This document shows, piece by piece, positions 3,634 to 28,634 of a stretch of DNA of 55,352 bases. Source of the stretch: a virus (lineage: Duplodnaviria; Caudoviricetes); the IMG/VR virus record IMGVR_UViG_3300037467_002425, positions 1-55,352 of that record. One strand, written 5' to 3'. The notes under the pieces are model-generated. The model did no database searches. It worked only from the letters and a program-made list of their open reading frames with translations, and was not told the origin of the DNA. The translations under genes and the position numbers were made by a program. Positions within the stretch are counted from its first letter, which is position 1; each line of letters starts with the position of its first letter.

Positions 3634-3882
3634 ATGGAAAATGTAAACTTAATGGCCGGTCAATTATCAGAAAATGACCTGGAACTACTTAAATCATATT
3701 TTATAAGTAGTGATCAGCATCGATGTACTTTTAAATCAATAAAAGAGCAACTTATTCAGAAAGGATTTCCCAAATATTCTGATAATGCTTTAGGTAAAGC
3801 TTTAAAAAGTTATGCCACATCAATAATTATTAAAAGAAATGGTACAACTTATCGTGGTTGGTTTGTAAAGTTTATTGGTTAA
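3634..3882 (+). CDS. Stand-alone winged-helix protein resembling the primase-helicase C-terminus
   Basis: ELLKSYF...SDNALGKALK...KRNGTTYRGWFV aligns by eye with ELLAKHF...NSNTLGKYLK...RKTGKTTIRKYQLV of 859..2997. Confidence 0.65.
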   Translation: MENVNLMAGQLSENDLELLKSYFISSDQHRCTFKSIKEQLIQKGFPKYSDNALGKALKSYATSIIIKRNGTTYRGWFVKFIG

Positions 3883-3904
3883 ATTTGAAATAAAAATAAT
3901 TTTT

Positions 3905-11582: not shown

Positions 11583-12244
11583 TGTTTTTCGATTATTAAT
11601 TTACTTACCCACGAGTTTAAAAGTTCACAGTTAGGAAGAACGCAATGCCCACCTATTTTACCTTCGCTATGTTTCAGAATATATTTTTTAAATTGAGGCA
11701 TTCCAAGCAATGCGTATCCGGAGTTATAAGTAGCATTTGCCAAGGTGTACACCGTATCAAAATTAAGATTATTTTCAGTACAAAACCGGTGTATTTCTTT
11801 TTCCAGTAAAATATTTAATCCGTAAATTGTGGTATCCCATAATTTCATGGCTTCAACCGATTCTGAATCGAGAAAACAAGCTACTTTGATATTGTATACA
11901 GCAAAAAACTTAGATGCTTTTTCAGCCTCCACACCACCAAAAAATTTAACGAAAGTGCGTATTCCTTTTTCAAGGTAGGGATGTACGCCCCGGCAGGGAG
12001 ATGATACCGCATTAAGTATTTTACAAGTACCAATCGGAACGGTAGAATGGATGATAGTAAGTTCAGCACGGTGTTTAACCTGGTAATTTTTTACCGTTTC
12101 GATGAATAAACCATTGTAAGGAATACAGATATGAAGGATTTCATAATTGCCGTCGGTTCCTTCTTTATCGGCTCCATCACATTCCAGGATAGATTGAATG
12201 GCCCGGCCTATTTCACCAAGGCCAATAACAAGATGTTTATTCAT
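11579..12244 (-). CDS. UDP-glucose/GDP-mannose dehydrogenase family protein (short form)
   Basis: VIGLGEIG Rossmann motif, IIHSTVPIGT, EAMKL catalytic Lys, GKIGGHCV catalytic Cys. Confidence 0.82.
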   Translation of the reverse strand: MNKHLVIGLGEIGRAIQSILECDGADKEGTDGNYEILHICIPYNGLFIETVKNYQVKHRAELTIIHSTVPIGTCKILNAVSSPCRGVHPYLEKGIRTFVKFFGGVEAEKASKFFAVYNIKVACFLDSESVEAMKLWDTTIYGLNILLEKEIHRFCTENNLNFDTVYTLANATYNSGYALLGMPQFKKYILKHSEGKIGGHCVLPNCELLNSWVSKLIIEKQ

Positions 12245-12858
12245 CGTATAAAAATTATATTTTCAGCGTTTTCAAGTACACTTACAAGGCCAAAGTTACG
12301 GCAGTAACCTTTGTAGGCATCTATTAAGTTTTTGTTACTATTGTGTTCGATGATCAGGCATTTACAATCTACGGCCGCAAGATCGATCTGTTCCAAGATA
12401 TCCAGGTCATAGCCTTCCGCGTCAATGGAAATAAAGTCTAATTGAGCAAAATCAGTCATTTCCCACAGGAAGGCAAATGGAACGACATTCACTTTTATTT
12501 TGTGGAAATCGACATTCGACCAACGCTGTGTTTCGTTGAAGTTCAATGTTGATACCAGGGCTTTATCTATACCGTTTGGAACATGAGCGCCAGACTCATA
12601 AAAATCAACAATTCCTTGTTCTATGCCAACGGCTACATTATAGCATTGTACTTTTTCATTGTATAGATAAAGCCGTTTCAGGTCATAGAAAACGCTCGAG
12701 GGCTCAACTAAATGTGCTGAAAATCCATTCTCAATAAGTAAACGAGCATTTGAAAAATCTAAACCATTATTTTCGCCTATTGATAATAAAGTACCTTTAA
12801 AATCACCAAAATAGTTTTTTATGAATAAGTCTTCCTGATTCTGAGAAAATGATTTCAT
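12241..12858 (-). CDS. FkbM family SAM-dependent methyltransferase
   Basis: SQNQED start, LSIGENNG, LVEP, FISIDAEG, IIEH. Confidence 0.88.
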   Translation of the reverse strand: MKSFSQNQEDLFIKNYFGDFKGTLLSIGENNGLDFSNARLLIENGFSAHLVEPSSVFYDLKRLYLYNEKVQCYNVAVGIEQGIVDFYESGAHVPNGIDKALVSTLNFNETQRWSNVDFHKIKVNVVPFAFLWEMTDFAQLDFISIDAEGYDLDILEQIDLAAVDCKCLIIEHNSNKNLIDAYKGYCRNFGLVSVLENAENIIFIR

Positions 12859-13583
12859 ATAATTTGTTTATTTAAATGTCTTGTTCTATTGTTTATTCCT
12901 GTTTCAAAAAGACCTTTAGCTAATCCAGTTTTAACGGCATGTTTCATATTTTCATTGGCAGTGACCCATTCCAAATTATACAGTGATAGGTTCATTCGAT
13001 TGCCATCTTTATGATTAATATAAGGTTTATTATAAGGGTTAGGAATAAAATGTAATGCTACCAATCTGTATAGATAAAATAATTTTGTTGTATTATTTTT
13101 CCATAATCTGATCGCAATACATTTATTAGCTATAGAATATGTCCAAGCTACTTTATCAGAAGTTTTTATATTAAGTACTATTCCTTTTTTATTTATTACA
13201 TATGAAGGGTAATCTGTTATAGGTACAAAAAATTTCTCTCTTACTTTATGTATTTGAAAAACTGTTTTTAAGATTAAGTTATTTTTATTGTTATTTAAAA
13301 TATTACCATCTTTGTGTACTATAAATAAATTTTCTGGGATTAAACTTTTAAAAGTTATATAAACTAAGTAGTCAATTTTATACTCTTTTCTATTTTTACC
13401 TTTGCCTATAGCTATTTGAGGTCCTACACCAACAATTCTACTTTTTAATATTAAATTAGGTTTTGAAAAAGGAACTTTTTTACCATTTTTAGCGTTAACT
13501 ATTCTCGGTAATGACTTTACTCTACCAAAAGATGAAACTGCATAGTTGCTATCAAAAGGCAATATTTTCCAAATTTCTTTCAT
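12855..13583 (-). CDS. NUMOD4-HNH homing endonuclease (duplicated NUMOD4/HNH units)
   Basis: EIWK..YAVSSFGRVKS; HKDGN...N and INHKDGNRMN..NLEWVT; strongly AT-rich. Confidence 0.88.
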   Translation of the reverse strand: MKEIWKILPFDSNYAVSSFGRVKSLPRIVNAKNGKKVPFSKPNLILKSRIVGVGPQIAIGKGKNRKEYKIDYLVYITFKSLIPENLFIVHKDGNILNNNKNNLILKTVFQIHKVREKFFVPITDYPSYVINKKGIVLNIKTSDKVAWTYSIANKCIAIRLWKNNTTKLFYLYRLVALHFIPNPYNKPYINHKDGNRMNLSLYNLEWVTANENMKHAVKTGLAKGLFETGINNRTRHLNKQII

Positions 13584-14809
13584 GATATCCCATCCGCGAG
13601 TAAAACAGTTTGTTCAGTTATTGTTGGTTCATCATCTTTACCGTATACAAAAAACGTATTTCCTGGTTGCAATTTCAATCCCATTTTATAAGCGATCAAT
13701 GATGCGGCGCTTTGATCGTGGCGATAAATATCCCAGGAGCCATTGAACATACCGTCACGCATAGCCTGGGTCCATTGATCAAAGAATTTATAGCCTATTT
13801 CACTATCCAGATCAAGCCCAAGCACTCCTGAGCTCAGCATGGGGCCTTCATCCGTACCAAAATAAGCTAGTGCTTCAGCATGTGTCCAGCGAGAGTTCAG
13901 CCAGCCACTATCCTGGAAAAAATATCCATCCCGTTCAATGATCTCAAATATCACGTCAATGTTCTTTATTGCCCGCATGGAAGCATCCAGCCAAAGTATT
14001 TGCCGATACCCGGCTTCGTAAGCTTTGATCATGGCCATAGGTTTAAAGCTGTAATTCATCTCCGCATGCGGTGCAGCACCTACTTCTTCCTCACTTTCAA
14101 AAAGAAGTACTGTAGCGTTTGTATTGTTGCGTAAACTGGTTGCCAAACGCTTCTGGCCCTTACGATATTTATCAGTAGATACGTTTACAATACATCTGCT
14201 GATTACTTTTTTATGATTCGGGTTGGTCCAGTAAGGATTATCTTCCGTAGATGCCTCTGTTATTTTCGGGTCGAAGTTATATTTGAACAAAACCTTATCG
14301 ATAAAATGTTCTGTACGGACTACTGATAAACATTCCTGTACAAAAGCCCAGTCCTCGCCATAACTGATATCAGGAAAAGAACATCCAAGCACTTTATGGG
14401 TATTCCAGGCGCAGTTTGGGAAAGGAGGTCTTTTACAGTCCAGGTATTTACCGTCCTTGGTATTATGTTCAACCTCGTTACCTAGTTGCTGCGTAATGAT
14501 AAAACTGGATCCGTCAGGATTGGTACACTGTGCTTTGAAATCGATCACGTCAACATCCAGGAAAGTAGCTTCATAGATTTCGTCTAAGGAGACAAACTCA
14601 TCATCCGAATCACAGAACAAAAAGAATTTACCTTGTACCAAAGATTTAGCAGCTTCACGTTTCGCACCGATAGTTCGTTTTCGGTTATCGAAAATCATCA
14701 CCAGTTCAATTTCACGATCACCGATCATAGCAAGCAAATTTCTATAAAGCTCCATGGACATTTCTGCCCTGGATTCCGTAGTGATGATTAAAACAGATAA
14801 CTGTATCAT
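13580..14809 (-). CDS. Two-domain glycosyltransferase (GT2 fused to a second GT-A domain)
   Basis: N-terminal domain TIGAKR..FCDSDD..FPDISYGED; C-terminal domain FKP....WLDAS...RHDQS. Confidence 0.85.
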   Translation of the reverse strand: MIQLSVLIITTESRAEMSMELYRNLLAMIGDREIELVMIFDNRKRTIGAKREAAKSLVQGKFFLFCDSDDEFVSLDEIYEATFLDVDVIDFKAQCTNPDGSSFIITQQLGNEVEHNTKDGKYLDCKRPPFPNCAWNTHKVLGCSFPDISYGEDWAFVQECLSVVRTEHFIDKVLFKYNFDPKITEASTEDNPYWTNPNHKKVISRCIVNVSTDKYRKGQKRLATSLRNNTNATVLLFESEEEVGAAPHAEMNYSFKPMAMIKAYEAGYRQILWLDASMRAIKNIDVIFEIIERDGYFFQDSGWLNSRWTHAEALAYFGTDEGPMLSSGVLGLDLDSEIGYKFFDQWTQAMRDGMFNGSWDIYRHDQSAASLIAYKMGLKLQPGNTFFVYGKDDEPTITEQTVLLADGIS

Positions 14810-15348
14810 TTTTTCGTTCTGTAATCGTAATGGTAAATAGGTTCTGATATTAATACTTCGGTTTTAAGTAAGGGAAGCAGTCGCATAGAATACTCAAAAT
14901 CTTCGGCGAATTTAACTTCGGGGAATCCTGCCTGTAAAGCTAATTCACGTTTAACCGGGGATATATGGTTTGGTGTACGGTAATAAGTATTGCCTCTTAA
15001 AAACCAACGTCCATACTCTTTAGAAATAAACCATTGTTGAGAATTTTTACCATTAGTTGTTAAAATACCGTTTATGCCAATACAATCCGGGTTACTTTGT
15101 GTGGCCCGGATAATCAGTTCTATATAATTAGCAGGCACATGATCGTCCGAGTCTATAAAAACGATATATTCTCCTGAAGCCCTGGCCAAAAGATCATTTC
15201 GCTTTTTACCGATGCAATTGGTTTCATGGTAATCTAGCAATATTTCTACTTGCTCAGTAGCTTGTTCCTGCAAACCACGTAGTAATTCATAGGTCATTTC
15301 TTGCCGTTCCATAGTACTAGCAATCAAAATACTGAGCTTTATCTCCAT
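14806..15348 (-). CDS. GT2 glycosyltransferase
   Basis: LSILI, IGKKRN, FIDSDD, FPEVKFAED. Confidence 0.88.
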   Translation of the reverse strand: MEIKLSILIASTMERQEMTYELLRGLQEQATEQVEILLDYHETNCIGKKRNDLLARASGEYIVFIDSDDHVPANYIELIIRATQSNPDCIGINGILTTNGKNSQQWFISKEYGRWFLRGNTYYRTPNHISPVKRELALQAGFPEVKFAEDFEYSMRLLPLLKTEVLISEPIYHYDYRTKK

Positions 15349-15851
15349 GTTTTGTTATTTATAATACGTGAAATATTAGCTTGAGTAGTGTTATATTTCT
15401 TAGCAATTGAACGTTGAGTAAGATTTTTAATAGTTCTTATTTCTTCAACTTGATCTTGGTTTAAACATGCGTTCGCCCTGTGATTTTTAGAAAAATTTTT
15501 TAACCCAGTTTTATGTGCATGTATTTCGTTTTCACTTACTGTACACCACTCTAAATTTGAAACAGCATTATTACTTTTATCACCATCTATATGATTTACA
15601 ATTGGCTTATTATTTGGATTCGGTAAAAATGTTAAAGCTACAAGTCTATGCAAAAGGTAACGTTTCATTAATCCATCTTTTTGACTGCCTAGAGCGAATG
15701 AAAAGTATCCTGATTTAGAAATATTTGGCTTTAGTAATTTTTGTCTTTTAAAAGTACCATGTCTACTTTTAAAAATTAAAGAATACACATTTCCTAGATT
15801 AGATATTGCATATTCTTTCTCATATCCGGGTAGTGGTTTAATTATCTCCAT
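15339..15851 (-). CDS. NUMOD4-HNH homing endonuclease
   Basis: YAISNLGNVYS, LHRLVA, VNHIDGDKSNNAVSNLEW, C-terminal HTH. Confidence 0.9.
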   Translation of the reverse strand: MEIIKPLPGYEKEYAISNLGNVYSLIFKSRHGTFKRQKLLKPNISKSGYFSFALGSQKDGLMKRYLLHRLVALTFLPNPNNKPIVNHIDGDKSNNAVSNLEWCTVSENEIHAHKTGLKNFSKNHRANACLNQDQVEEIRTIKNLTQRSIAKKYNTTQANISRIINNKTWR

Positions 15852-16516
15852 TTTATATCAGAATAAGCCATTATTGGTTCCGTAATTCCAAAATTTGTTT
15901 TTAATCTTTCGTTAAATAAGTTTTCACCTTGCTTCCAAGTCAAATCGTTCTTGACATTGATCTCATCTTTTGGTGATTTTCCAGTACTATAGTGCAAGTG
16001 TTCAAACTTCAAAGGCAATTTTATATATTTACCAGTCATCAACGCTACAGCAGTTAATTCCTGATCGCAAAACATGTGAGAATAGCCATTGTAGTATACA
16101 TATCCGTACCGTTCATAATACGTCCGGTCCATTATTGGCATAGTGATGAGTGTAGGCTGTAAGCCATCATCAGTTTTCGCACAGAAATCAGATTTACCTT
16201 CAAGGGCTTCAAGAAGTAGCGTGTCCCAGTTTTCAGGGCAATCTGTGTCATCAGAGATAATAACAAATAAATCACCAGTAGCTATTTTGGCACCCTCATT
16301 AATAGCTTCAATAGCTGATTTGTTAGGACGTAAGCAGATTGAAATTATACTATCTTCATAAAAAAATTCACGATAATATTCTTCACAAGCGTCTTCGTCC
16401 CAACATAAAATATACTCAATTTCATTTTTTAAATCAGATTTTCCCCTCCAATTCCAAAAAGTATCATAAGCTTGTTTAGCTCTGTTTCGTGAAGGGAATA
16501 TTACAGATATTTTCAT
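15842..16516 (-). CDS. GT2 glycosyltransferase
   Basis: ISVIFPSRNR, AINEG, IISDD, MFCDQE, FEHLH. Confidence 0.85.
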   Translation of the reverse strand: MKISVIFPSRNRAKQAYDTFWNWRGKSDLKNEIEYILCWDEDACEEYYREFFYEDSIISICLRPNKSAIEAINEGAKIATGDLFVIISDDTDCPENWDTLLLEALEGKSDFCAKTDDGLQPTLITMPIMDRTYYERYGYVYYNGYSHMFCDQELTAVALMTGKYIKLPLKFEHLHYSTGKSPKDEINVKNDLTWKQGENLFNERLKTNFGITEPIMAYSDIKWR

Positions 16517-17175
16517 TTATAAGGTATAAATTGATTACTTAATTTTGTTTCTTCCCAGTATTTTTTATTGGCCCGAATTGCTTTACTACGTTCATAAGGA
16601 TCAAATGATGACTGAGCCGTATTTTCTTCATCGTGTGAATAAAATAATCCTTTTGAATGTGGAATATCAATGTAAGGTGCAGGGGTCATATTCATATTAA
16701 AAATTCGCCTGGATAGTTCTGCATGCTCATAGCAGTTTTTGAAATTGGTATCAAAACCTCCTGCTTTTTCAATACAATGCTTAGTAAAATAAAGTAGACA
16801 ACCCCGCGGCAAATCGTAAGCTTTATAATCAGGTTCTTTCCATAATAATTTTCTATTAAAAATATAACAAGCATGCTGCAAGTTACTATGAGTATACCAA
16901 GTAGCCCAATGAGCATCTAAAGCATATACATCTTCATCTGCTAAAAATATGTGATCCGCGTTTTCAGCTAATTGCAAACACATATTTTTAGCGGTTGATA
17001 TACCTACATTATTTTCAAATCTGTAATCAGCATCTGGGTAAGGTGGATTTGAAGCGTCGTCAACTATAAAAATATCGCAATTAGCGGGAGCAAGTTTTTG
17101 CCATTGCTCAATACTATGTTTAGCAATTTCAGGACGATTATGAACAGTGATACAAAGAGCTATACGTGTTTCCAT
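16513..17175 (-). CDS. GT2 glycosyltransferase
   Basis: ITVHNR, IVDDAS, NVGISTAKN, FLADED, GGFD, YEHAELS. Confidence 0.9.
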   Translation of the reverse strand: METRIALCITVHNRPEIAKHSIEQWQKLAPANCDIFIVDDASNPPYPDADYRFENNVGISTAKNMCLQLAENADHIFLADEDVYALDAHWATWYTHSNLQHACYIFNRKLLWKEPDYKAYDLPRGCLLYFTKHCIEKAGGFDTNFKNCYEHAELSRRIFNMNMTPAPYIDIPHSKGLFYSHDEENTAQSSFDPYERSKAIRANKKYWEETKLSNQFIPYK

Positions 17176-17693
17176 GTCTGCCCCCGTTTGATCGCATAAA
17201 TAGTTACTTTGTTAACACCGTGTTCTTTTGCGATATGAGCGCCAGGAACACCTTCTTTTAGTTGTCTTTTTATTTTTTCTACTTTGATTTCATTTAATTT
17301 AGAACATTTCGGTTTTTCACTTCCTTTAGCAGTATTCATTATTCCTAAAGAAAGTCCATGAATAGTATTTTCAGAAGAAGTAACCCATTCAAGATTTGAT
17401 GCGTAATTATTTATTTTTATGCCATCTTTATGATTAACTTCTGTTTTATCTTCAGATTTTTCACAAAAATGTAAAGCGACTATTCTATGTAATTGATGAG
17501 ATTTTGCTTTTCCATCTTTACACATAGTAAACCCGCAATATCTGAATTTTTGTTTTGGAGGGCTTATTTTTAAAATACGATCATCAGGAGAAGCACCACT
17601 ACCTTTTCTTCCTAAAGATTTAATTCGGCCAAAATTAGAAACTTGATAAAGTCCTTCATAGCCAACCACATCTTTCCAAATTTCTTGTTCCAT
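17160..17693 (-). CDS. NUMOD4-HNH homing endonuclease
   Basis: EIWKDVVGYEGLYQVSNFGRIKS, HRIVA, VNHKDG...NLEWVT, C-terminal HTH. Confidence 0.92.
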   Translation of the reverse strand: MEQEIWKDVVGYEGLYQVSNFGRIKSLGRKGSGASPDDRILKISPPKQKFRYCGFTMCKDGKAKSHQLHRIVALHFCEKSEDKTEVNHKDGIKINNYASNLEWVTSSENTIHGLSLGIMNTAKGSEKPKCSKLNEIKVEKIKRQLKEGVPGAHIAKEHGVNKVTIYAIKRGQTWKHV

Positions 17694-18194: not shown

Positions 18195-18323
18195 ATGAGT
18201 GACAAAAACCAGAAGGAACAAATCGAAAAGCTAGAAAAGCTTAAAGAGAAAAACCTGCCTGAAAACGTCCAGAAATCAATCGCGGAGAAGCAAAAGCACA
18301 TTCAGAAGCCTTTCAACAAATGA
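18195..18323 (+). CDS. Small Lys/Gln-rich protein (42 aa)
   Basis: Manual ORF MSDKNQKEQIEKLEKLKEKNLPENVQKSIAEKQKHIQKPFNK; ATGA-coupled to the protease gene. Confidence 0.6.
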   Translation: MSDKNQKEQIEKLEKLKEKNLPENVQKSIAEKQKHIQKPFNK

Positions 18324-19156
18324 GTAAAATCTATTGCAAAGAACTTGATAAGAAATTTTTATCCAAGGATGAAATGTTTTTTGCATTGAAGGCAAATGTG
18401 GATAAAATCATCTCGATCAAGAAAGCAGCCATCAAAGATAGTGATGGTGTTTCTTTTCAGTTTCGTGAAAATGTTGAAAATGTTACTAAAGCTGCACCAG
18501 CCGAAACTTTAAAAGCAGTAAAAGATGGAGATACTATTTATCCGGTCATCAATACCACAAACTGGCTGGACAGTCACGGAGATGTTCACCTGGACGGTAT
18601 CTGGGATACCTCAATAGCTCAGCAACAAGGTAAAATATTTTATGCAGTTAATCATGAATTAAAACTCGGTTCTATCATCAGTTATCAAGATGAAGTGACC
18701 ATGAGTGTTAAAACAATGAACTGGACCGATCTTGGAGAAAATTATCCTGGTCAAACTCAGGCATTAATTTTTGCGGCTAAATTGACTGATGCTTCTAATA
18801 AAGCAGCTACAAAGGCTATCAAAGCACAAAAACCACTGGAAAATAGCGTTCGTATGCAATATGTGGATATGGTTTTATGTGTAGACAGCTCCGCCAAAGG
18901 TCTTGAACAGGAAAGGATGAATTTTTACACATACCTACCCAAGATCGCCAATAAAGAAGATGCTACGGCCGCAGGATATTTCTGGGCTATCAAGCAAGCT
19001 AAAATTGTTAAAGAAGGAAGCGCGGTACTCGCAGGATCCAACCGCGTTACACCTATTTTATATACTGACCCGTCTAACAAACAGTCAACCAAAGAAACCG
19101 AACCGCCCGCAAACAGCAGCACTGAGGTTAAATCAGATTATTTTTATGAACTTTAA
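18320..19156 (+). CDS. Prohead maturation protease (HK97-like, divergent)
   Basis: DSHGDVH, NHE, SVRMQY, EGSAV..GSN motifs; directly upstream of the capsid gene. Confidence 0.72.
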   Translation: MSKIYCKELDKKFLSKDEMFFALKANVDKIISIKKAAIKDSDGVSFQFRENVENVTKAAPAETLKAVKDGDTIYPVINTTNWLDSHGDVHLDGIWDTSIAQQQGKIFYAVNHELKLGSIISYQDEVTMSVKTMNWTDLGENYPGQTQALIFAAKLTDASNKAATKAIKAQKPLENSVRMQYVDMVLCVDSSAKGLEQERMNFYTYLPKIANKEDATAAGYFWAIKQAKIVKEGSAVLAGSNRVTPILYTDPSNKQSTKETEPPANSSTEVKSDYFYEL

Positions 19157-19168: not shown

Positions 19169-20464
19169 ATGAAATTTGAGTATTTAACCAAAGCGCAATT
19201 CGATGCTCTTACTGATTATCAGAAAGAGAAATACGCTGATGATAAGCGTAACCACGAAATGAAGGAAACGCAGGAAGCCGCTAAAGTAGCCGCTGAAACT
19301 GCTGCGGACGAAAAAGTCAAAGTAGTTAAGGAAGAACTGACAAAAACAATCGAAGCCCAAAAAGTTGAGATTGATGCATTAACAGTTAAAATTGACGAAA
19401 CTGACAAAAAACGTGAAGCTGTTGAGGCTAAGATGGAGCGTATCCAGGCCAAGCAAAAAGAAGCTGAGATTTCAGGCTTGAAAGCTGAGATAACTGAAAT
19501 GTTCACTAATAAAGAAAGTGAAGGCTACAAACAGCTCGCCGGGTTTAAAACCAAAAAATCTTTCAATGTAGAATTGGAAGGCAAAGGCTTATTGGCCGAA
19601 AAAGCACCTGGGGTGATCGGAGTGCCTTCAGGTACTACCGCACAGCAATGGTTACAGCCTATCGGTATTCCGCATGAAACTGTGCAGGCCCGTGATATTA
19701 TTCCAGTGTACCCAACTGAGTTTCCATCTATCAACTATGTTCAGTTCACTAAAAAGGACGGTAGCATTGCTTCCGTTGCTGCAGGTGCAACTAAACCACA
19801 ATTTGATTATACACCTACCGGGAAATTGGCACCAGTTATCAAAATCGCTGGTTGGGTGAGCGTTCAGGAAGAATTTCTGGATGATGTTGTAGGTTCTGGT
19901 GCATTTTTAGCTCAGGAATTACCATGGGCGTATAAAGATGAAGAAACTCGTCAAGTATTTAAAGGTAACGGTACATCTGAACTGAATGGTTTATTTGCAA
20001 ATGTGGCGACTGCATTGAATTTTGCAGGTTTTGAAACCGCAGGCTCGGATTCGAATAACTGGGACAAAATCGTAGTTGGTTTGACTAACTCACGCCGTAG
20101 CTTACGTCCAGGCGATGCTATCTGGGTTTCCCCTGAGGCTTATGCTGAACTTTTGATGAACAAATCAGAAGGTGCAACCCAGGAATATGATTACCCAATC
20201 CAAGCTACTACCGCTGGTCAGTTGGCTATCGGGGGTATTCCGATTTACTTCCATACTGTATTTAATGCATTGGAAGGTTTATCTGGTAACTTTAGTCGTG
20301 GTGTAGCATTGTGGCAACGTAAAGGTATTACCTTACGTACTTCGACCGAAGCTGATCAGAACTTCTTCAAGAACTTAGTAACATTCTTAATTGAAGCACG
20401 TATGGCAATGACTCCTTTCTTTCCTGAGTCATTCAAAAAGATCGACTTTACCCGTACTACTTAA
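19169..20464 (+). CDS. Major capsid protein (HK97 fold, N-terminal coiled-coil delta domain)
   Basis: Charged helical N-terminus; KIAGW..V..E.LDD, GNGTS.LNG, F.KNLVT...E.R motifs. Confidence 0.92.
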   Translation: MKFEYLTKAQFDALTDYQKEKYADDKRNHEMKETQEAAKVAAETAADEKVKVVKEELTKTIEAQKVEIDALTVKIDETDKKREAVEAKMERIQAKQKEAEISGLKAEITEMFTNKESEGYKQLAGFKTKKSFNVELEGKGLLAEKAPGVIGVPSGTTAQQWLQPIGIPHETVQARDIIPVYPTEFPSINYVQFTKKDGSIASVAAGATKPQFDYTPTGKLAPVIKIAGWVSVQEEFLDDVVGSGAFLAQELPWAYKDEETRQVFKGNGTSELNGLFANVATALNFAGFETAGSDSNNWDKIVVGLTNSRRSLRPGDAIWVSPEAYAELLMNKSEGATQEYDYPIQATTAGQLAIGGIPIYFHTVFNALEGLSGNFSRGVALWQRKGITLRTSTEADQNFFKNLVTFLIEARMAMTPFFPESFKKIDFTRTT

Positions 20465-20488
20465 TCGTTTTTCATGTTTTTCAGGTTT

Positions 20489-20524
20489 AGTCCCACGTAT
20501 ACTGAATATGTGGGACTTTTTTAT
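20489..20524 (+). terminator. Intrinsic terminator after the capsid gene
   Basis: AGTCCCACGTAT...ATATGTGGGACT followed by a T tract. Confidence 0.75.
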
Positions 20525-20525
20525 T

Positions 20526-20533
20526 TATATTTG
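20526..20533 (+). promoter_or_regulatory. Bacteroidota -7 promoter element of the neck/tail operon
   Basis: TATATTTG 4 nt upstream of ATG 20538; same context (TATATTTGATTTATGGA) as at 3622. Confidence 0.55.
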
Positions 20534-20537
20534 ATTT

Positions 20538-21095
20538 ATGGATGCACTTGATATCATATCTCTGGCTATGGCAAAAAATTGGATCAGTGTTGACGTAACC
20601 GATACGCAGTGGGACGAAGATATCGGGCGGCTCATTAGAACTGCTATTGATCGAGTAGAACGTTATACCTCCTGGCGGCTTTATCAGCGTACAGAAACGC
20701 TTTATAATCGTCAGCAGCCTTATTATAACCCCGCCAATTATTTCCCGCCAGCGGGTTCGGGAGAATGGCACGGAAGTACAGGAGTGAGATCAGTACCGGG
20801 AGGATTATCGATTTACTTATTTCCGTTCACTATCACTTCTGTAAAAGATAGCAATGGCGCGGATGTAACTTATACAACCGTTATACAGCCTTTAAAAACA
20901 CTTTTATATGCGTTACCGAATAGTATTATTACGCTGCAGACAGGTTTTACTGATGTAACAAAAATTCCACAAACATTTATCGACGCGGCATTGAAATTAA
21001 TTACTGACATGTTTGAAAACCGGGATAATTATACCACCTCGATGCCAACTGAAGTGCAATATATGCTCAATCAATACCGGAGGGCGTTGATATGA
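20538..21095 (+). CDS. Head-tail adaptor (HK97 gp6/SPP1 gp15-like)
   Basis: ISLAMAKNWI.VD...D..I..LI..A...VE.YT and C-terminal A.L.LI..MFENR. Confidence 0.85.
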   Translation: MDALDIISLAMAKNWISVDVTDTQWDEDIGRLIRTAIDRVERYTSWRLYQRTETLYNRQQPYYNPANYFPPAGSGEWHGSTGVRSVPGGLSIYLFPFTITSVKDSNGADVTYTTVIQPLKTLLYALPNSIITLQTGFTDVTKIPQTFIDAALKLITDMFENRDNYTTSMPTEVQYMLNQYRRALI

Positions 21096-21478
21096 GTAAA
21101 AAGAAATTTGCTAATAAAACGTTTCTCGATCCGGGCAGGTTTCGTTACAATATTTCTTTTTATGAACATTCAACTACGATTAATAATTATGGTGATCAAA
21201 CGATAACAGATACTTTAGTAATGAGCACCCGGGCTTCAAAACAAAATATACAAAACCGTCCCGGAAGTATTTATTCACAATTAGAGGAAGAAGCCGGTGC
21301 TACTTTAATGAACGGTGATACTTATTTTACGATTCGTTTAAGACAGGATTGGCAGCCGAAAAAAGATATGCACGCTGTAGTAGACGGAATTAAATATGTT
21401 GTAAGAGCACTTATACCTTTAGATTACCCACAAAACTACTGGCGCATTTTATGCACCACAATACAAATAGGAGAATGA
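21092..21478 (+). CDS. Head closure/stopper protein (SPP1 gp16-like)
   Basis: DPGRFRYNISF, YGDQ, FTIR, Y.V; synteny. Confidence 0.75.
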   Translation: MSKKKFANKTFLDPGRFRYNISFYEHSTTINNYGDQTITDTLVMSTRASKQNIQNRPGSIYSQLEEEAGATLMNGDTYFTIRLRQDWQPKKDMHAVVDGIKYVVRALIPLDYPQNYWRILCTTIQIGE

Positions 21479-21882
21479 TAAAGAACTTACAGGAAGCACT
21501 GGACCCTCTATTACTACTTCAGAAAGAAGCAAGGTTAGCCGTCAGACGCGGGGAGTTAACTGTTGCTAACCGTATTGCTGAAGAAGCAAGGGCAGAAGCG
21601 CCAGGCAGTCTTGGAAGTAAAATATCAGTGGAACAAACAGAAGACGAAACGATTATTGATGCGGGGGATGAGCTTTCTGCGTATGTGGAGTTTGGTACAG
21701 GCCAGAACGCAGAAGATTTTTTAGCAGGGAAACCAGATGAACAAGTAGCTGAAGCAAAGAAATTTTTTGTAAATGGTCAAGGTACTTTAAAAGCACATCC
21801 GTTCTTTTTTCCTGCGATTTACAGACATAGAGATGAAATTTCTGAAGAAGTTGATAATGAGTTAAACAAAATAAATGCGTAA
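21475..21882 (+). CDS. Tail completion/neck protein (HK97 gp10-like)
   Basis: AP..GSL..I, SAYVEFGT, AHPFFFPA. Start reassigned to ATG 21475. Confidence 0.82.
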   Translation: MIKNLQEALDPLLLLQKEARLAVRRGELTVANRIAEEARAEAPGSLGSKISVEQTEDETIIDAGDELSAYVEFGTGQNAEDFLAGKPDEQVAEAKKFFVNGQGTLKAHPFFFPAIYRHRDEISEEVDNELNKINA

Positions 21883-22609
21883 TCCTGATAAATATTTGCG
21901 TGAAGGTTATTTAACCGCTTTACAAGCGCAAGGGTTAACCGTTTACAATAAAACTATTCCTGTTGATACTATTCCCGACCCAAACGGATATGTGCTGATC
22001 GAATCACAATCTAAAACGACTACTGAACGTAGTAAAACTGATTTTGAATGGAACAGTCGAATAACAATGCATATCATCAAAGTAAGTACTCGTGGGTATT
22101 CATCTACCAGCACTGTAGATGATATGGAAGAAAAATGTATCAATGCTGTTGAAAGTGGTATATTAGTTAATAATTTTTATTTGAAATCTACTTATCAGAT
22201 TGAAAGTATGAATCTGGATATGTCAGATAAAACAAATACAATTGAACGACGAGTTTTGATTTATGAACATTGGTTAGCTGAAGTAGGAAATAATAGTTTT
22301 GGGCCATCAAATCCGGGGTCGATTGCTCCTTTAGGTCCAATTTTAATCCCTGCGGGAACTCCAATTCCTTATTTTTTAGCCGTACCTGTAAGGTTTAATG
22401 AAAATTCAGAAGTTATTACAGAAGTAATTTGGGAAGACCCGCAAACGAATACTTTAACTGGTGAATTAGTTAGAGTTTATAATATGCCTGTAGTTAAACA
22501 AGACACAAACGGGGATGGTACAGGTAGTTTTATAGGTTGGAATATTTATGGACATAGTAACGATAATTCACTTACTTTTCAAGAGGATACATATATTACT
22601 TTAAGATAA
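21875..22609 (+). CDS. Tail terminator with an extra C-terminal domain of about 90 aa
   Basis: Synteny and an N-terminal tail-terminator-like region; the C-terminal part is homologous to 31648..32091. Confidence 0.65.
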   Translation: MRNPDKYLREGYLTALQAQGLTVYNKTIPVDTIPDPNGYVLIESQSKTTTERSKTDFEWNSRITMHIIKVSTRGYSSTSTVDDMEEKCINAVESGILVNNFYLKSTYQIESMNLDMSDKTNTIERRVLIYEHWLAEVGNNSFGPSNPGSIAPLGPILIPAGTPIPYFLAVPVRFNENSEVITEVIWEDPQTNTLTGELVRVYNMPVVKQDTNGDGTGSFIGWNIYGHSNDNSLTFQEDTYITLR

Positions 22610-22610
22610 A

Positions 22611-23084
22611 TTGATACCAGGGAGATTAATCGGATTAAAAGTTAACGGCATATTTATAAGCTGTGAGTTATCTTGTGATTTTAATTTTCAGGCCGAAATG
22701 CTTCCTGCGTCCGCTATCGACAGCGCAGCTTGGAAAGAATTTATCGCAGGTATCCGTTCCTGGTCTATGGGGGTAAGTGGTCAACTATTAGCCGAGGCAG
22801 TAGGTGCTGATTTCAAAACTATTCTTAATTCATTTTTTACACGAATACCTGTTTTAGTGATCTGGGGCACCAGACCATCAGCTACAACACAATTAAGTAT
22901 GTCAGGGAGTGCTTTAGTATCCGGGGGAAGTGCTACAGGACCAAATAAAGGTGCGGCGACTTATACTATAACTTTTCAGGGGACTGGGCCTTTAACAACT
23001 AATTTTGAGGATTATTCACTCATTATCGATGCGATGGAACCTCGTGATGATTGGCCAATTATAGTTAATGAGAATGTAACATAA
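22611..23084 (+). CDS. Tail tube protein paralog 1
   Basis: WKEFIAGIRSWSMGVSG and ATYTITFQGTGPL, a TP901-1-like tube signature; TTG start. Confidence 0.78.
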   Translation: MIPGRLIGLKVNGIFISCELSCDFNFQAEMLPASAIDSAAWKEFIAGIRSWSMGVSGQLLAEAVGADFKTILNSFFTRIPVLVIWGTRPSATTQLSMSGSALVSGGSATGPNKGAATYTITFQGTGPLTTNFEDYSLIIDAMEPRDDWPIIVNENVT

Positions 23085-23422
23085 TGAATAATGGAATAGG
23101 TTTTATTGTATGGGATGAAGGCTTTGCATGTTCAGATGAAGTCGTATTTGATATTGAGAGAGATCCAGTAATAGACCCTGAGGGTAAAAAAAATATCACT
23201 GAAACTAAAACTTTGAAATATATCAGTATATTTGAGGGAGCAGGCTTGATAGTTAAGGGGTTAAAAGTGCGTTGCTTATTTAAGTCCGGTGAGAAAAAAT
23301 ACGCTTTCACAGGAGAAGTAAGAGGAAAAAGTGGTAATCTTACTATTATAGATATAAATACTAAATCTGATCGAATTAACGAAATTATAGAAAAAATCAA
23401 ATCTTTTAAAGGAGGAAAATAA
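23084..23422 (+). CDS. Hypothetical protein between the tail tube paralogs
   Basis: 112 aa ORF, co-oriented and coupled to its neighbours. Confidence 0.6.
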   Translation: MNNGIGFIVWDEGFACSDEVVFDIERDPVIDPEGKKNITETKTLKYISIFEGAGLIVKGLKVRCLFKSGEKKYAFTGEVRGKSGNLTIIDINTKSDRINEIIEKIKSFKGGK

Positions 23423-23423
23423 A

Positions 23424-23885
23424 ATGAATGCACTTCCCGGCAAGCTTTTAGGGGTAACCTTAGACGGCGTTTATTACAAATGCCAGACAAATGCCGATCT
23501 GACCTTCACCGCAGCAGTTACTGCGGATGATACCTGTAAACCTGACCAGGGAGTAGGCGCAGATCCGATACAGTGGGTAACAAACACTGTTGACAGTAAA
23601 AGTTGGGTGATCACTTTCAGCGCGAAAGCTTTTGCTGACGGACTTGGCGCTTCTGGTAATCAATTATCACGTTTCTTTATTGAAAGTGATCTTGCGGTTA
23701 CTGCGCACTTTATGACCAATCCGGATCTAGGAGATGGAATTATCAGTGATGACGTTCTGTATGAAGGTAGCGGTTTACTGACAAGCCTTAAATTGAACGG
23801 CCCGGAAAAAGGCGCTTCAACTTATGATGCGACTATTACTGGTAATGGTCCGATGACAATTACGGAGACTAACCGTACTACATAA
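23424..23885 (+). CDS. Major tail tube protein (paralog 2)
   Basis: PGKLLG, KSWVITFS, STYDATITGNGPM; shortly upstream of the chaperones. Confidence 0.8.
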   Translation: MNALPGKLLGVTLDGVYYKCQTNADLTFTAAVTADDTCKPDQGVGADPIQWVTNTVDSKSWVITFSAKAFADGLGASGNQLSRFFIESDLAVTAHFMTNPDLGDGIISDDVLYEGSGLLTSLKLNGPEKGASTYDATITGNGPMTITETNRTT

Positions 23886-24477: not shown

Positions 24478-24738
24478 ATGGGCTTAAAGCCCGATGAAGT
24501 AGAGCGCTGTACATTAGGTCAGTTTAACCTCATGCTATTAGGATACCAGCGCAGACAGGAAAAAGAATGGGACAGAACACGACATATTATGGCTTTTATA
24601 CTGAACTATGCAGGGTTCGGTGCAAAAGAGTTTCATCATCCAAAAGATATTTTTCCCCTGCATATGGATAATGAGGATAAGAAAAAACGAATTAATTCAA
24701 TTAAACAGGCATACGCCTTACTAAAAGAATTTGAATAA
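24478..24738 (+). CDS. Tail assembly chaperone T-part (frameshift product)
   Basis: GLKPDE...T..QF..GY..R..WDRTR; in the -1 frame relative to the upstream chaperone. Confidence 0.78.
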   Translation: MGLKPDEVERCTLGQFNLMLLGYQRRQEKEWDRTRHIMAFILNYAGFGAKEFHHPKDIFPLHMDNEDKKKRINSIKQAYALLKEFE

Positions 24739-27700
24739 TGGCAAGGCTTATATACGAAATAGGTGGTGACGTAACCGGACTTGAAAATGCCATTAATCAA
24801 GGTTTAAATCTTCTCAAACAGTTTGATGCCAAATCAACTGAAGTAAAAATAACCGTTCCGGATATATCTCCCCAGTTCCGTGCCGGAATAGCTGCTCTGG
24901 ATCAGCTAGGTGAAAAACTTCTCGTAGTTCAGGGTAATACTACTTTATTCGGAGAAAGTGTTAAGCTACAGTCACAGGAAGTTGCTGCTTATCAATCTGC
25001 TTTGAATTCATTACTCGCTAATGGATTTGATCCAATGGATGCTGATGTTCAGCGGTTAAAACAGCGAATTGATGATCTTACACAATCTCTTAAAAATATA
25101 AGGGGGGTTCAGCCGCCAGGATCTTTTATAAATGATACGTCTCCATTACCCTCTGCTGAAAATGTAGCAAGACCTGATTTAACAGGGGCAGTAGGCCAAC
25201 AATCTGAACTGATTTCGCAACTTAATCAGCAGTTAGCGCAAGGTACTATAACTACTGAGCAGTATAATCAGGCGCTTTTAGGTGCCAATTCTACTTTAAA
25301 TACTTTAAGTGAAAGTACAGCAAATGCAACAGGAGCTTTAGAGTCTGAGATCGGCATAATAGCTGGAATGAAGCAAGCACTTGCGGATCTTAATTCGATA
25401 AGGCTTAACACACTTAATGAGCAGGATTTACCTAAACTTAATGCAGAAATACAGCAAACCGAGTTCGAGATAAAAAGGCTTTCTAACATTGGAAAAGAAG
25501 GGTTTGATAGTTTTGGAAACGCTATAAAAGGCGTTTCTGTACAGAACGTAAACGGTCAGTTAATATCTTTGTCTAACAATCTTTTTGGTGCCAGGCAGAT
25601 ATCCCGTGACCTGGTAAGGACTTTAGATGCAGGATCAATTTCAGGATTCGCCAAAGCGGTAGGTTTATTGGCTGTCGATTTCTTATTCTTTGCCCAGAAC
25701 GCGCAGTTCGCCCGCACTTCTACAATAGGGGCAACCGCAGCTATAGCAGCAGAAGGTGAAGTGGCTGCAGGTTCCGCTTTAACGACAGGCGCTTTGGGTG
25801 CCGCTTTTTCTTCTTTACTTACCCCGACCAGTTTGATTGTTTTAGGTATCGCCGCAGCGGGGGCGGCTTTTATTGCTTATGAAAAAAGCCAGAAAACTGC
25901 TACTGAAACAGCTACAGAACATTTAAAAGCTTTAAGAGAACAGAAGCAGGCTTTAGCTGATTACGTTTCTACTCTTACACCTGCACAACAGGTAGAGGCC
26001 AACGCAGCGCAGAATTATGCGGAATCCACTATAAAACTGGAAGAACTGGTATTTGCAGTTAAGAATAATACAGGGGCGATTTTTGACGGTAAGACAGCCC
26101 TTGAAGATTTACAGAAACTGTACCCCGTATTTTTTGCCAATATCGATGAGGCCGCGTCTAAAACCGATAAGTTCACTGCTGCTGCAAATGCTGCTAAAGA
26201 GTCTTTACAGGCTTTGGGTGAGTTTCAGGCAGCTAATAAATTGGCGCAACAGTTTCGCGAAGTGGCGGTGTCCAATCAAGCGGCGGCGAATAGTTTATTG
26301 AAGCCACTTACAGATATAAAAACTCAACTTGACCAGGCAACTGAAAGTTTTAAAAAAGCAGGTAGTCAATTTACTCAGTCTTTTAGCGGGCCTGGGGGTG
26401 GTGGGGCTAGTAGCGCAGCTACAGGATTAAATCAGCTTCAGGTACAGTATAATAATCTGCTTGAAAAAATAAAAGGATATAATCAAGCAGTAGCCGAAGC
26501 AAATCAAAAAACCCAGTCGTTTATTGATATCGCTAATTCACGGGCACCTAAAGCCGGGCTTGTTACTGTAAAACCTGAAAAAGATACTGCTGATGTAATT
26601 AACCAGTTTGACACGTTAAAACAAAAACTGGATGAAATTATACAGAAAAACAGTGCTTTAGCCGGAAATAATGGGCTTAAAGGATATGCCGCGGATGTAG
26701 CTGATATAGTTAAACAGTTTACGGATCTTAACAATGCAGTATCATCATTTGCTATCCAGGTTAATAAAGCTTTTGAAAGAGGGGCGTTGACTGCATCTCA
26801 AAGGGATAAATTATTAGCACCGTTACCTTCTATAAAAACGGCTATTCCTCAAAATGAAGATGCTGCGATCAACCAAGCCAAAATAAAAGATGCCCAGGCA
26901 ACTGCAGATGCTATACAGAAAATAAACGATCAGTTTGGTATAAAAGAACAGGCCGGGTTCAACGAGGAATTGTCACGTATTAAAAAACTATATGATAGCA
27001 TTCTCGAAGAAGCCCGTAAAAGTACATTAACAAGACAGCAGATTGAAGAAAATTATCAGCGGGCAGTACAGAACGCCCAAGGTAATTCAACGGCACTAGC
27101 GAACGCTAAACGTATCCATGATGCGCAAGTGCAGCAGGCGCAGGATGCTGATGCTCGTATAGTGGCCGCACAGAAAGATATTTTACCTGCCATACTTGCC
27201 GTGGATGAAAAGTATATCCAGCAAGAGCAGCAGACCTACGGTAAAATAATTGACATTGCAAATCAAGCTTTTGAGGCTTTGGATAGCGGGGAAGCATCGC
27301 GTACAGATAAGATTAATCTGGAATGGCAGAAACGTATTACTTCTGCTAATGCTTATTTTGATAAGTTACGCGATCTGGCTAAAGCCGCTAATCTGCCTCA
27401 ATCATCTACGGATAATATTAATACTATCCAGGCGCAGGTTAATGTTTTATTAAAAGCTGCTAATGCGCAGCAGGTATCTGTAGAGATATCTAAACCATTT
27501 GCTGACGCGCTTCAGGGGGCTACCGATAGTTTTGTAAAAAATTTCTATGATAGTTTAACTGGATTAGGTCAAGCCCGGCAGACAATTGATGATAAATATT
27601 TTTCACAATTAGCCGCAGCTACTGATCAGGCTACAATCAATCAGATTAATAGCCTGAAAAAGATCGAGCAGCAAGCTACGACTTCTTTTGGCGCTATTTT

Positions 27701-28634
27701 TAGCTCTCTGGTAAGTAAATTCAGTGCGTCTTTTAACCAAAGCATTCTTTCCAGTTTCACTAAACAACTGACGGAAAATTTAGGAAAAACCTTAATCGCT
27801 CCAACAGATAAACAATTAACTATTTCTCCTGAAGAACAAGCAGCTCAGAATGTAGCCGACACGCTTAAAAATGCAGGTAATAACTTAGCAGAAGAAATAA
27901 AACAAGCAGGAGTGGCTTTTGCAAATTCTATAAAAGGCGCGAGTATTAATCCATTAAGCAACACTGGCGTAAATGCAAAAGGTGACTTAGTTCCATTGGA
28001 TACTGGAACAGGTTCATTTACCGGAAATTTTAATACTGCAGATTTTGGTAATACGGTTACTGATTCAGCCAGTACTTTTTCCAATACGACTACAGAAGCT
28101 GCCACTAAAGCGGGTAATAAAATTACTAGTGGAGGTGCATCTGCCGGGCAGTCCATTTCTGATAGTGGTAATAAATTATCCTTATCAGTCGCAAGAGCTG
28201 CGTCTGCATTAAGTATAGCGGGCGGTATTGTGTCAGGTGTAACGTCTCCAACAAGTACTGTAGGACAAGGAATAGGTGGCGCTTTATCAGGTGCTGGTGA
28301 AGGCGCATTAATTGGTTCTGCCATTGCACCGGGTATTGGAACTTTAGTAGGGGCTGTAGGTGGATTTATTGTAGGTGGTATCAGCGGTATATTTGGCGCG
28401 TCCAAAGCTAAGAAACAGGAAGAATTACAGCAAAAGCAATTAGAGCAGCAGAAATTGACTAATGAATTACTTGCACGGCAAAATGCTTTGGCCTATACTT
28501 CATCTATTATAGGCCGGATGACTCAGCAAGGTATTGTCACTGGCGTTGATCTTAATTCATTTGGAGAACTAACCGCTACTGTTAGCGGTAAAGATTTGCA
28601 ATTCGTATTGGGGAGGGCAGCAAATGGGCGTTAA
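24738..28634 (+). CDS. Tape measure protein
   Basis: 1298 aa, Ala/Gln-rich and helical with Gly-rich hydrophobic segments; follows the chaperones. Confidence 0.92.
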   Translation: MARLIYEIGGDVTGLENAINQGLNLLKQFDAKSTEVKITVPDISPQFRAGIAALDQLGEKLLVVQGNTTLFGESVKLQSQEVAAYQSALNSLLANGFDPMDADVQRLKQRIDDLTQSLKNIRGVQPPGSFINDTSPLPSAENVARPDLTGAVGQQSELISQLNQQLAQGTITTEQYNQALLGANSTLNTLSESTANATGALESEIGIIAGMKQALADLNSIRLNTLNEQDLPKLNAEIQQTEFEIKRLSNIGKEGFDSFGNAIKGVSVQNVNGQLISLSNNLFGARQISRDLVRTLDAGSISGFAKAVGLLAVDFLFFAQNAQFARTSTIGATAAIAAEGEVAAGSALTTGALGAAFSSLLTPTSLIVLGIAAAGAAFIAYEKSQKTATETATEHLKALREQKQALADYVSTLTPAQQVEANAAQNYAESTIKLEELVFAVKNNTGAIFDGKTALEDLQKLYPVFFANIDEAASKTDKFTAAANAAKESLQALGEFQAANKLAQQFREVAVSNQAAANSLLKPLTDIKTQLDQATESFKKAGSQFTQSFSGPGGGGASSAATGLNQLQVQYNNLLEKIKGYNQAVAEANQKTQSFIDIANSRAPKAGLVTVKPEKDTADVINQFDTLKQKLDEIIQKNSALAGNNGLKGYAADVADIVKQFTDLNNAVSSFAIQVNKAFERGALTASQRDKLLAPLPSIKTAIPQNEDAAINQAKIKDAQATADAIQKINDQFGIKEQAGFNEELSRIKKLYDSILEEARKSTLTRQQIEENYQRAVQNAQGNSTALANAKRIHDAQVQQAQDADARIVAAQKDILPAILAVDEKYIQQEQQTYGKIIDIANQAFEALDSGEASRTDKINLEWQKRITSANAYFDKLRDLAKAANLPQSSTDNINTIQAQVNVLLKAANAQQVSVEISKPFADALQGATDSFVKNFYDSLTGLGQARQTIDDKYFSQLAAATDQATINQINSLKKIEQQATTSFGAIFSSLVSKFSASFNQSILSSFTKQLTENLGKTLIAPTDKQLTISPEEQAAQNVADTLKNAGNNLAEEIKQAGVAFANSIKGASINPLSNTGVNAKGDLVPLDTGTGSFTGNFNTADFGNTVTDSASTFSNTTTEAATKAGNKITSGGASAGQSISDSGNKLSLSVARAASALSIAGGIVSGVTSPTSTVGQGIGGALSGAGEGALIGSAIAPGIGTLVGAVGGFIVGGISGIFGASKAKKQEELQQKQLEQQKLTNELLARQNALAYTSSIIGRMTQQGIVTGVDLNSFGELTATVSGKDLQFVLGRAANGR

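Follow-up and report, generated by a model that had tools for sequence, protein, structure and literature searches.

We analysed the uncultivated-virus record IMGVR_UViG_3300037467_002425, a complete record of 55,352 bp with direct terminal repeats (hereafter the window), whose gene content in Pfam and PHROG scans is of the siphovirus type. Its major capsid protein and its major tail tube protein end in the same three residues, Arg-Thr-Thr (RTT), and an operon of glycosyltransferase (GT) genes, encoded on the opposite strand, separates the portal gene from the head genes. The two endings, the genes that carry them and a second tube gene are laid out as follows (aa, amino acids).

19169-20464, plus strand: major capsid protein, HK97 fold, 431 aa (Pfam PF05065 Phage_capsid, 5e-18; phrog_10)
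20453-20464, plus strand: capsid C-terminal R-T-T and stop (CGT ACT ACT TAA; protein ends DFTRTT)
22611-23084, plus strand: second tube paralogue, 'tube1', ending NVT (Pfam Phage_tail_2, 4e-6; phrog_1407, 3e-17)
23424-23885, plus strand: major tail tube protein, 'tube2', 153 aa (phrog_1407, 7.5e-7)
23874-23885, plus strand: tube C-terminal R-T-T and stop (CGT ACT ACA TAA; protein ends ETNRTT)

A first-pass annotation of this DNA had pointed out the shared RTT and described the two proteins as unrelated folds. The shared ending is a direct reading of the sequence at 20453-20464 and 23874-23885, and AlphaFold2 (AF2) models searched with Foldseek gave an HK97-type fold for the capsid and a tail-tube-type fold for 23424-23885. 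The capsid scored 65.9 bits against PF05065 (cut-off 24.2), and its model (predicted local distance difference test, pLDDT, 72; final residue 54) resembled HK97 gp5 and D3 (E 1e-19 to 3e-20), with a target template-modelling score of 0.71-0.84 against HK97 gp5 (E 1e-19). Capsid residues 1 to ~130 were modelled as a helical delta- or scaffold-like domain, and the last strand (423-426) was followed by a coil tail, TRTT, at the lowered confidence of an AF2 monomer. The tube protein had no Pfam match; its model (pLDDT 79) resembled monocin MttP, the 80alpha tube, a gene transfer agent (GTA) and lambda gpV (E 1.5e-5 to 5.5e-4), and its terminal T-T lay in a 4-residue coil past the last strand (145-149), again in a monomer model of lowered confidence. 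The tube2 gene lies past that of the tail terminator and just upstream of the chaperone and tape-measure genes, and this type is the one kept in all relatives, those with a single tube gene included. Tube residues C20 and C38 are invariant in 41 of 41 aligned tube proteins, down to ~17% identity, which suggests a conserved disulfide or metal site.

The tube1 gene is found only in some lineages, together with the open reading frame (ORF) at 23084-23422. The first-pass annotation held that this paralogue lacks the motif; RTT is indeed missing there, but the protein ends NVT, and its counterparts in five near relatives end SVT, RVT (three) and DVT. V-T closes tube1 in the window and in the five other near-clade genomes, but not in any of three distant ones (EGF, NIL, DVV). 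Because all six near-clade genomes share this end, tube1 may be a further substrate of the enzymes described below.

Within one genome, the RTT coincidence is not significant by itself. The window has 79 ORFs that reach 60 aa, and four C-terminal tripeptides (IND, RTT, YMK and DIL) were each common to at least two of them, which makes RTT sharing alone weak evidence; random internal tripeptides gave an expectation of 0.66 sharing pairs. For two proteins named beforehand, the chance of a shared tripeptide was ~2e-4. A DNA-level motif behind RTT was considered and rejected: a 15-base pattern common to both RTT sites was found only there (2.3 matches expected with at most 3 mismatches), and the terminal Thr codons of relatives vary synonymously (ACT, ACG, ACA) with the residues kept, so selection acts on the protein. 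The D-I-L ending, carried by five ORFs (42487-43131, minus; 46814-46984, plus; 52819-53373, minus; 55186-55341, minus; 51343-52365, minus), is of another kind. Four of the five share the DNA GATATATT[A/G] followed by the stop, and three read GATATATTATGA, with the stop TGA overlapping ATG; it looks like a recurring junction of start/stop coupling and not a protein motif.

Conservation of the endings and their association with glycosyltransferase genes

Near relatives, with capsids 79-95% identical to that of the window, keep RTT in four of the five contigs with a complete capsid end (the fifth has RVT) and on the tube in all four contigs that reach it. Tube relatives of at least 67% identity end RTT in 19 of 22 cases, the rest being RAT, RNT and RVS, and Arg at -3 is invariant in 23 tube sequences. 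In a capsid series of 52 proteins spanning 100% to 34% identity, 51 have T or S as their final residue, and the penultimate residue of every one is T, V, I or S. Positions -3 to -6 show free variation across the series; Arg stands at -3 in all 28 members with at least 72% identity and, beyond them, only in P0062. As the terminal residues are kept beyond the Arg-bearing clade, the conserved unit is T-[T/S]-COOH, where -2 may also be V or I, and not RTT. Among HK97 capsids further removed, T or S comes last in only 8 of 68.

Capsids and tubes were paired within fetched contigs. Searches of the GenBank phage collection returned capsid matches of at most 27% identity and no tube match. A scan of viral and genome contigs with tube profile A1 gave no new family member, returning four known contigs and a 17-residue match in a Planctomycetota metagenome-assembled genome (MAG); profile A5 added five more distant loci (L069-L073) and found a contig from Sphingobacterium again. 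A single metagenome scan yielded six loci, mostly short.

The first-pass annotation had asked whether such endings co-occur with the GT operon across related genomes, and in the set compared here they do. We compared ten related viral records in full, together with shorter contigs and with L069-L071 as outgroup loci. Records with GTs in the structural module formed one set (G000-G009, L002, L022, L023, L025 and L026), in which L022 was scored as GT-carrying on a GT2 fragment at the contig end beside a methyltransferase of the type that accompanies the GTs of G002 and G003; the GT-free set, with no GT in the structural module as far as sequenced, comprised G010, L021, L069, L070 and L071, with L072 left out of the tree. 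All 15 capsids of the GT-carrying set end in T or S (TT in 11, TS in two, VT in two), as do all 12 of its known tubes (TT in ten, TS and VS in one each). In the GT-free set, T or S closes one of five capsids (TS in L070; TA in G010, PA in L021, AV in L069 and AP in L071) and none of four tubes (TP in G010 and L071, SV in L069 and L070; the L021 contig stops before the tube). In L072, also GT-free, KP closes a capsid fragment and TP the tube. With phylogeny ignored, the capsid difference of 15/15 versus 1/5 gave a Fisher p of 0.001.

None of the phylogenetic contrasts between GT-carrying and GT-free records was discordant. L021 (no GT, PA) and L022 (GT2 fragment, TT) came out as sister rows with a support of 94, a placement left unresolved in a smaller tree. 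The capsid T has changed to S twice on the tree, once in the G001 clade and once in G004, and exactly those genomes have tubes ending VTS and FVS; in G010 the terminal T is lost from capsid and tube alike. These matched T-to-S changes and the double loss in G010 speak for one shared reader of both tails. In place of GTs, G010 (the same record as L019) carries a PurZ-like adenylosuccinate synthetase (9967-11043 in L019; phrog_1211, 8e-51), along with a kinase-like gene and other genes between the capsid and adaptor genes, and its genome may contain 2-aminoadenine (Z).

The ending is not confined to the two proteins. In ten GT-carrying records (nine rated complete), TT or TS ends 2-5 of 50-82 ORFs, with ~0.65 expected per 80 ORFs. 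Most of these ORFs encode virion proteins, which besides capsid and tube include head closure and terminator proteins (G006, G002, G009), a portal (G004) and tail proteins (G002, G006); four, in G000, G005, G007 and G008, have no virion assignment, and the window's own ORF of this kind is 40740-41048.

The operon and its counterparts in other phages

The GT operon (10038-17175) holds about six GT-like genes, an FkbM methyltransferase and three homing endonuclease genes of the NUMOD4/HNH type (SAM, S-adenosylmethionine).

8361-9815, plus strand: portal protein (Pfam Phage_portal, 2e-36), left border of the operon
10038-10583, minus strand: small GT-A glycosyltransferase, 'GT_a' (phrog_14179, 5e-44), with an invariant DxD motif
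10584-11582, minus strand: weak GT-B (GT4-like) glycosyltransferase (Glyco_trans_1_4, 2e-4, below the Pfam cut-off; no PHROG match)
11579-12244: ORF adjoining the GT-B gene
12241-12858, minus strand: FkbM-family SAM methyltransferase (Pfam Methyltransf_21, 1.8e-13)
12855-13583 (minus strand), 15339-15851 and 17160-17693: NUMOD4/HNH homing endonucleases (Pfam HNH_3, NUMOD4; phrog_59)
13580-14809, minus strand: 409-aa protein whose N-terminal half is a Che8 gp108-like GT (phrog_8858, 1.4e-17; blastp to Che8 gp108, 3.7e-12)
14806-15348, minus strand: GT family 2, 'GT2_180' (phrog_14775, 7e-32; phrog_8858, 7e-30; family of the Che8 gp108 GT domain)
15842-16516, minus strand: GT family 2, 'GT2_224' (Pfam Glycos_transf_2, 3e-9; phrog_14945)
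16513-17175, minus strand: GT-A glycosyltransferase, 'GT2_220' (phrog_1579, 1.5e-46; phrog_2456, 2.8e-43; family of the Taj gp107 N-terminal domain)
18320-19156, plus strand: head-morphogenesis protein of 278 aa at the protease/scaffold position, right border of the operon

Residues D38 and D40 of GT_a are invariant in nine homologues, and GTs of its type stand beside phrog_1579-type GTs in G001, G005, L084 and L147; by position only, it is a candidate for the enzyme that starts a glycan chain. The FkbM methyltransferase gene is kept inside the operon in relatives, and its product probably methylates the glycan. No protein of the operon has a strongly hydrophobic 19-residue segment (maximum Kyte-Doolittle mean 1.57), and the enzymes are for that reason probably soluble. 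Two other targets for the GTs were considered and rejected: the host-envelope polysaccharide, as the GT proteins lack a strong hydrophobic segment, and DNA, as a Pfam scan of 70 ORFs picked up Dam and a C5 methylase but neither a hydroxymethylase nor any other enzyme of DNA hypermodification.

The closest known parallel lies in mycobacteriophages. Virion O-glycosylation in these phages, with Che8 gp108-110, Corndog gp35-38 and Myrna as cases, was reportedly established by Freeman et al. 2023, Cell Host Microbe 31:1216. According to PMC12619734, which cites Freeman et al. 2023, glycans are seen at the C-termini of the capsid and tail-tube subunits of Mycobacterium phages; PMC12363180 lists Che8, Corndog and Myrna as glycosylated, and Che8 gp110 and Corndog gp38 as essential for capsid glycosylation. 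The 2023 study on mycobacteriophage virion O-glycosylation is also cited in PMC10877033 and PMC11256854. GenBank records show KTGS at the end of the Che8 and Taj capsids and SDGS at the end of their tubes; in Corndog, the capsid closes with LVGS and the tube with KGDS. The known systems, too, thus have one and the same hydroxy residue, serine, in last place on capsid and tube. Between the capsids of Che8 and Corndog, blastp gave no match at E ≤ 0.01.

Two GTs of the window are homologous to enzymes of the mycobacteriophage cassettes. GT2_220 matched 609 phage records in tblastn, 569 of them from Mycobacterium or Mycolicibacterium phages, with Taj gp107 as the best match (36.8% identity, 2e-33). 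Taj gp107 shares phrog_1579 and phrog_2456 with GT2_220 and sits at the gp108 position in this sister phage of Che8, where phrog_854 accompanies the phrog_1579-type GT. Che8 gp108 itself belongs to phrog_8858 and phrog_14775, in common with GT2_180, which aligns with gp108 residues 6-183 at 32% identity (blastp, 6e-24). The layouts are alike as well: both systems have a cassette of small GT-A enzymes, probably soluble in the case of the window, with a methyltransferase, and the Corndog genes (gp35-38, for a methyltransferase and three GTs) occupy the interval from portal to capsid, as does the cassette of the window.

The differences are as plain. The proposed tag here is Thr-Thr (or Thr-Ser), whereas theirs is Gly-Ser or Asp-Ser; the host, judged from relatives, is probably a member of the Bacteroidota and not an actinobacterium; in place of gp110/gp38 and gp109/gp37, for which no homologue was found in the window, there are GTs of phrog_14179 and phrog_14945; and the window operon is larger (about six GT-like genes), reads against the direction of the head genes and has three homing endonuclease genes interrupting it. 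Glycans have been seen in the mycobacteriophages, whereas the window system is predicted from sequence. What would be new is thus the tag chemistry, host phylum, enzyme set and operon layout; what appears to be common is two enzyme families and the logic of an end tag on two proteins. A literature search, with most subscription papers outside its reach, found no report of virion glycosylation in a Bacteroidota siphovirus or of a Thr-Thr tag.

Two bacterial systems offer looser comparisons. In Pseudomonas aeruginosa 1244, PilO (TfpO) glycosylates the C-terminal serine of the pilin PilA, so that there, too, the last-residue hydroxy amino acid of a highly repeated structural protein is the glycan acceptor. 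PilO, however, is a membrane oligosaccharyltransferase that transfers a lipid-linked O-antigen unit in the periplasm, and is unrelated to the probably soluble GT-A enzymes of the window. Flagellin O-glycosylation (Maf, FlmG) uses soluble cytoplasmic transferases encoded beside the structural gene and acting on Ser/Thr of a polymer-forming surface protein, but its acceptors are internal surface residues and not the C-terminus; Pfam and PHROG scans of the window showed no match to the Maf or FlmG families.

Beyond the family, an alignment scan with GT2_220 found a relative encoded in 387 viral contigs. The analysis took in 80 of these loci, including 72 on contigs that were new to it. Hidden Markov models (HMMs) identified 37 capsids and 36 tubes in the 72 new loci, and all 73 proteins end in T, against a baseline of 14.9% T or S ends among the other 953 ORFs in loci with a GT2_220 relative. 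The capsids end ETT (34), QTT, NIT and PST, the tubes IPT (34), VTT and ATT; the 34 ETT capsids and 34 IPT tubes belong to one large group, and the others are from L142 (capsid QTT, tube VTT), L151 (NIT, ATT) and L147 (capsid PST). Capsids of other families, identified through PHROGs, also stand beside the GT: phrog_29 in L080 and phrog_617 in L145, a protease-capsid fusion, both end TPTT, and phrog_247 in L089 ends QASS. In all, the tag is present on capsids of seven further lineages and four capsid PHROG families. Five other lineages (L083 with L082, L093, L100, L122, L150, L152) had no identified capsid gene and are therefore uninformative.

In the lineages examined, the GT cassette lies in the structural module, between portal and capsid or between capsid and connector, except in L083/L082, where it follows tail-fibre and lysis genes. 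Two unassigned proteins of L084 end TPTT and LITT. Near the phrog_1579-type GTs of two unrelated phages, proteins of 179 aa (L080, 9310-9849) and 202 aa (L084, 6731-7339) without a family match end PPTT and TPTT; these may add to the tagged components of the virion, perhaps as decoration or tube proteins.

The endings as proposed glycan acceptors and the competing explanations

We favour, at a probability of about 0.68, the interpretation that the C-terminal T-T of capsid and tube (T-S in some relatives) is an O-glycosylation acceptor for the phage's own enzymes. It is supported by the conservation of the endings, their co-variation with GT genes, their replication in other lineages and the homology of two GTs to mycobacteriophage enzymes. 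The transfer itself, the residue that would bear the sugar, the GT that would start the chain and the purpose of the coat (shielding, stability or adhesion) are what we infer. In the course of events that we propose, the enzymes from 10038-17175 would act as a set, probably a soluble one: late in infection, a GT-A enzyme would add the first sugar to the terminal threonine hydroxyl, other GTs would lengthen the chain, and the FkbM-type methyltransferase would methylate it. Assembled heads and tails would then carry a dense glycan coat, to which connector and tail proteins with the same ending would contribute in some relatives.

Several results weigh against this interpretation. Where the first-pass annotation had proposed RTT-COOH as the site of GT recognition and attachment, support extends to shared C-terminal hydroxy residues as acceptor but not to Arg, which at -3 lies outside the conserved unit. 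Two enzyme families of the mycobacteriophage cassettes, phrog_854 (Che8 gp110, Corndog gp38) and phrog_1721 (Che8 gp109), had no match at E ≤ 0.001 among 26 window proteins that included the whole operon; of the Che8 and Corndog GTs searched by blastp against the window ORFs, gp108 alone matched. GT_a (phrog_14179) was tried as a remote homologue of Che8 gp110 and dropped (hhalign probability 0.4%). A TT end is not diagnostic by itself, since a 102-aa protein at 40740-41048 ends NTLTT (TNLTT in its G007 homologue) and yet, despite this TLTT, has a hydrophobic segment and directly follows the M15 endolysin gene; it is probably a holin or spanin, and its ending is likely unrelated to the virion tag. 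For the tubes, T or S ends 66 of 150 superfamily representatives (50% clustering), which makes the tube result less specific than it appears; many other representatives end TP, AP or A, and a Thr/Pro-rich tail may be a general tube feature. Either the system is very widespread or such tails are common for other reasons. Between GT-carrying and GT-free records, the tree offers just two independent contrasts with well-supported branches, or four with all branches, numbers at which a sign test cannot reach significance. The GT-free records, moreover, are fragments (G010 is rated 43% complete, L021 measures 9 kb and L069-L072 13-17 kb), so GT genes could lie elsewhere in those genomes, and L070 keeps its TS capsid end with no GT in 17 kb.

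Some of these points would be expected if each terminus were kept for structural or assembly reasons of its own, such as the packing of the final residues within the capsomer and the tube ring, with the GTs acting elsewhere, on DNA or host polysaccharide, and the shared T-T arising by convergence or from compositional bias of exposed Thr/Pro-rich tails. Fixed ends do occur in other HK97 families without a known GT link (TV in 28 and AA in 17 of the 68 distant capsids), T or S closes 44% of the 150 representative tubes, significance is not reached once the tree is taken into account, and the class that PHROGs assigns to these GTs is 'moron, auxiliary metabolic gene and host takeover'. We nevertheless consider this account unlikely. 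It would have to produce the same dipeptide on two unrelated folds, T-to-S changes and loss that match between capsid and tube, loss of the ending in four of five GT-free relatives, and recurrence of the ending in four capsid PHROG families wherever the GT family and a capsid gene were found together. The placement of the cassette in the structural module, L083/L082 excepted, also tells against a target elsewhere, as do GTs without strong hydrophobic segments and 70 ORFs without a match to a DNA-hypermodification enzyme.

There are two further explanations. One takes the full RTT identity as a coincidence fixed by shared ancestry in a narrow clade, with no wider meaning: four tripeptides are shared in the genome where 0.66 pairs are expected, and capsid and tube both have Arg at -3 solely within the clade of at least 72% capsid identity, hence in a single evolutionary event. 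This would account for Arg alone, whereas T-[T/S] is kept far more widely and co-varies with GT genes; even for Arg, invariance in 23 tubes and all 28 near-clade capsids suggests some selection, and we hold the explanation to be very improbable indeed. The other has T-T-COOH read by something that is not a GT, for example in phosphorylation, in methyl-esterification by the operon methyltransferase or in binding by a chaperone, or has it serve to shield the protein from C-terminus-reading host proteases. Many cassettes do include a methyltransferase as a constant member (FkbM here; phrog_27561 beside the GTs in G002, G003 and L022), which would suit such a reader, but the tag tracks the GT family and not the methyltransferase, and G001, G005 and L147 have GTs with no methyltransferase called in the cassette. 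We give it a small chance, given too that the modification is a glycan in those relatives that have been characterised (PMC12619734, PMC12363180).

A broader proposal, which we make tentatively and rate slightly below an even chance, is that a terminal Ser/Thr with a free carboxylate is a portable 'glycosylate me' code, read by a mobile GT-A cassette (phrog_1579/2456, phrog_8858/14775, phrog_14179) that has spread across phages of different bacterial phyla and lands in structural modules. Capsid, tube and at times connector proteins would gain and lose the tag with the cassette, and its residue (Thr, Ser or Gly-Ser) would co-evolve with the enzymes. To our knowledge, phage virion glycosylation has been demonstrated only for a few mycobacteriophages. 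Were the proposal true, it would be common in environmental phages, given the 387 viral contigs with a GT2_220 relative. If the Thr-Thr ends of the window are indeed glycan acceptors, it would extend to Bacteroidota phages and a large set of uncultivated ones. A two-residue C-terminal tag would then be a simple genome signature that predicts glycosylated virions, and one transferable to other proteins for phage display, vaccine scaffolds or reporter substrates in GT discovery. It would also raise the question of how a sugar coat serves phages that never meet antibodies, be it in protease resistance, colloidal stability, adhesion to polysaccharide matrices or evasion of host surface lectins.

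Other genes of the window and the probable host

The host is probably a member of the Sphingobacteriaceae (Bacteroidota), because one relative, the 53-kb G003, forms a contig of its own in the assembly of the isolate Sphingobacterium sp. SGG-5, and another was found in a MAG of Mucilaginibacter. Further landmarks of the window are these.

3875-5927: small and large terminase
24738-28634: tape measure, with chaperone-position genes also present

The 278-aa head protein (18320-19156) had no match in Pfam or PHROG; its gene lies directly upstream of the capsid gene and is kept in relatives. The window also has genes for adaptor, head-closure, neck and terminator proteins, for tail proteins and for the M15 endolysin, and a replication module. 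The tail terminator (21875-22609) has 244 aa in the window and in L026 versus 137-152 aa in most relatives, and so carries a C-terminal extension of ~100 residues. A 687-aa tail-region protein (33865-35928) contains a glycoside hydrolase family 43 domain (7e-10) and is likely a polysaccharide-degrading receptor-binding protein. HNH homing-endonuclease genes number five in the window (12855-13583, 15339-15851, 17160-17693, 38666-39151 and 46981-47421); three also have NUMOD4, three are interleaved with GT genes, and one lies between two beta-helix proteins (37491-38552 and 39156-40199).

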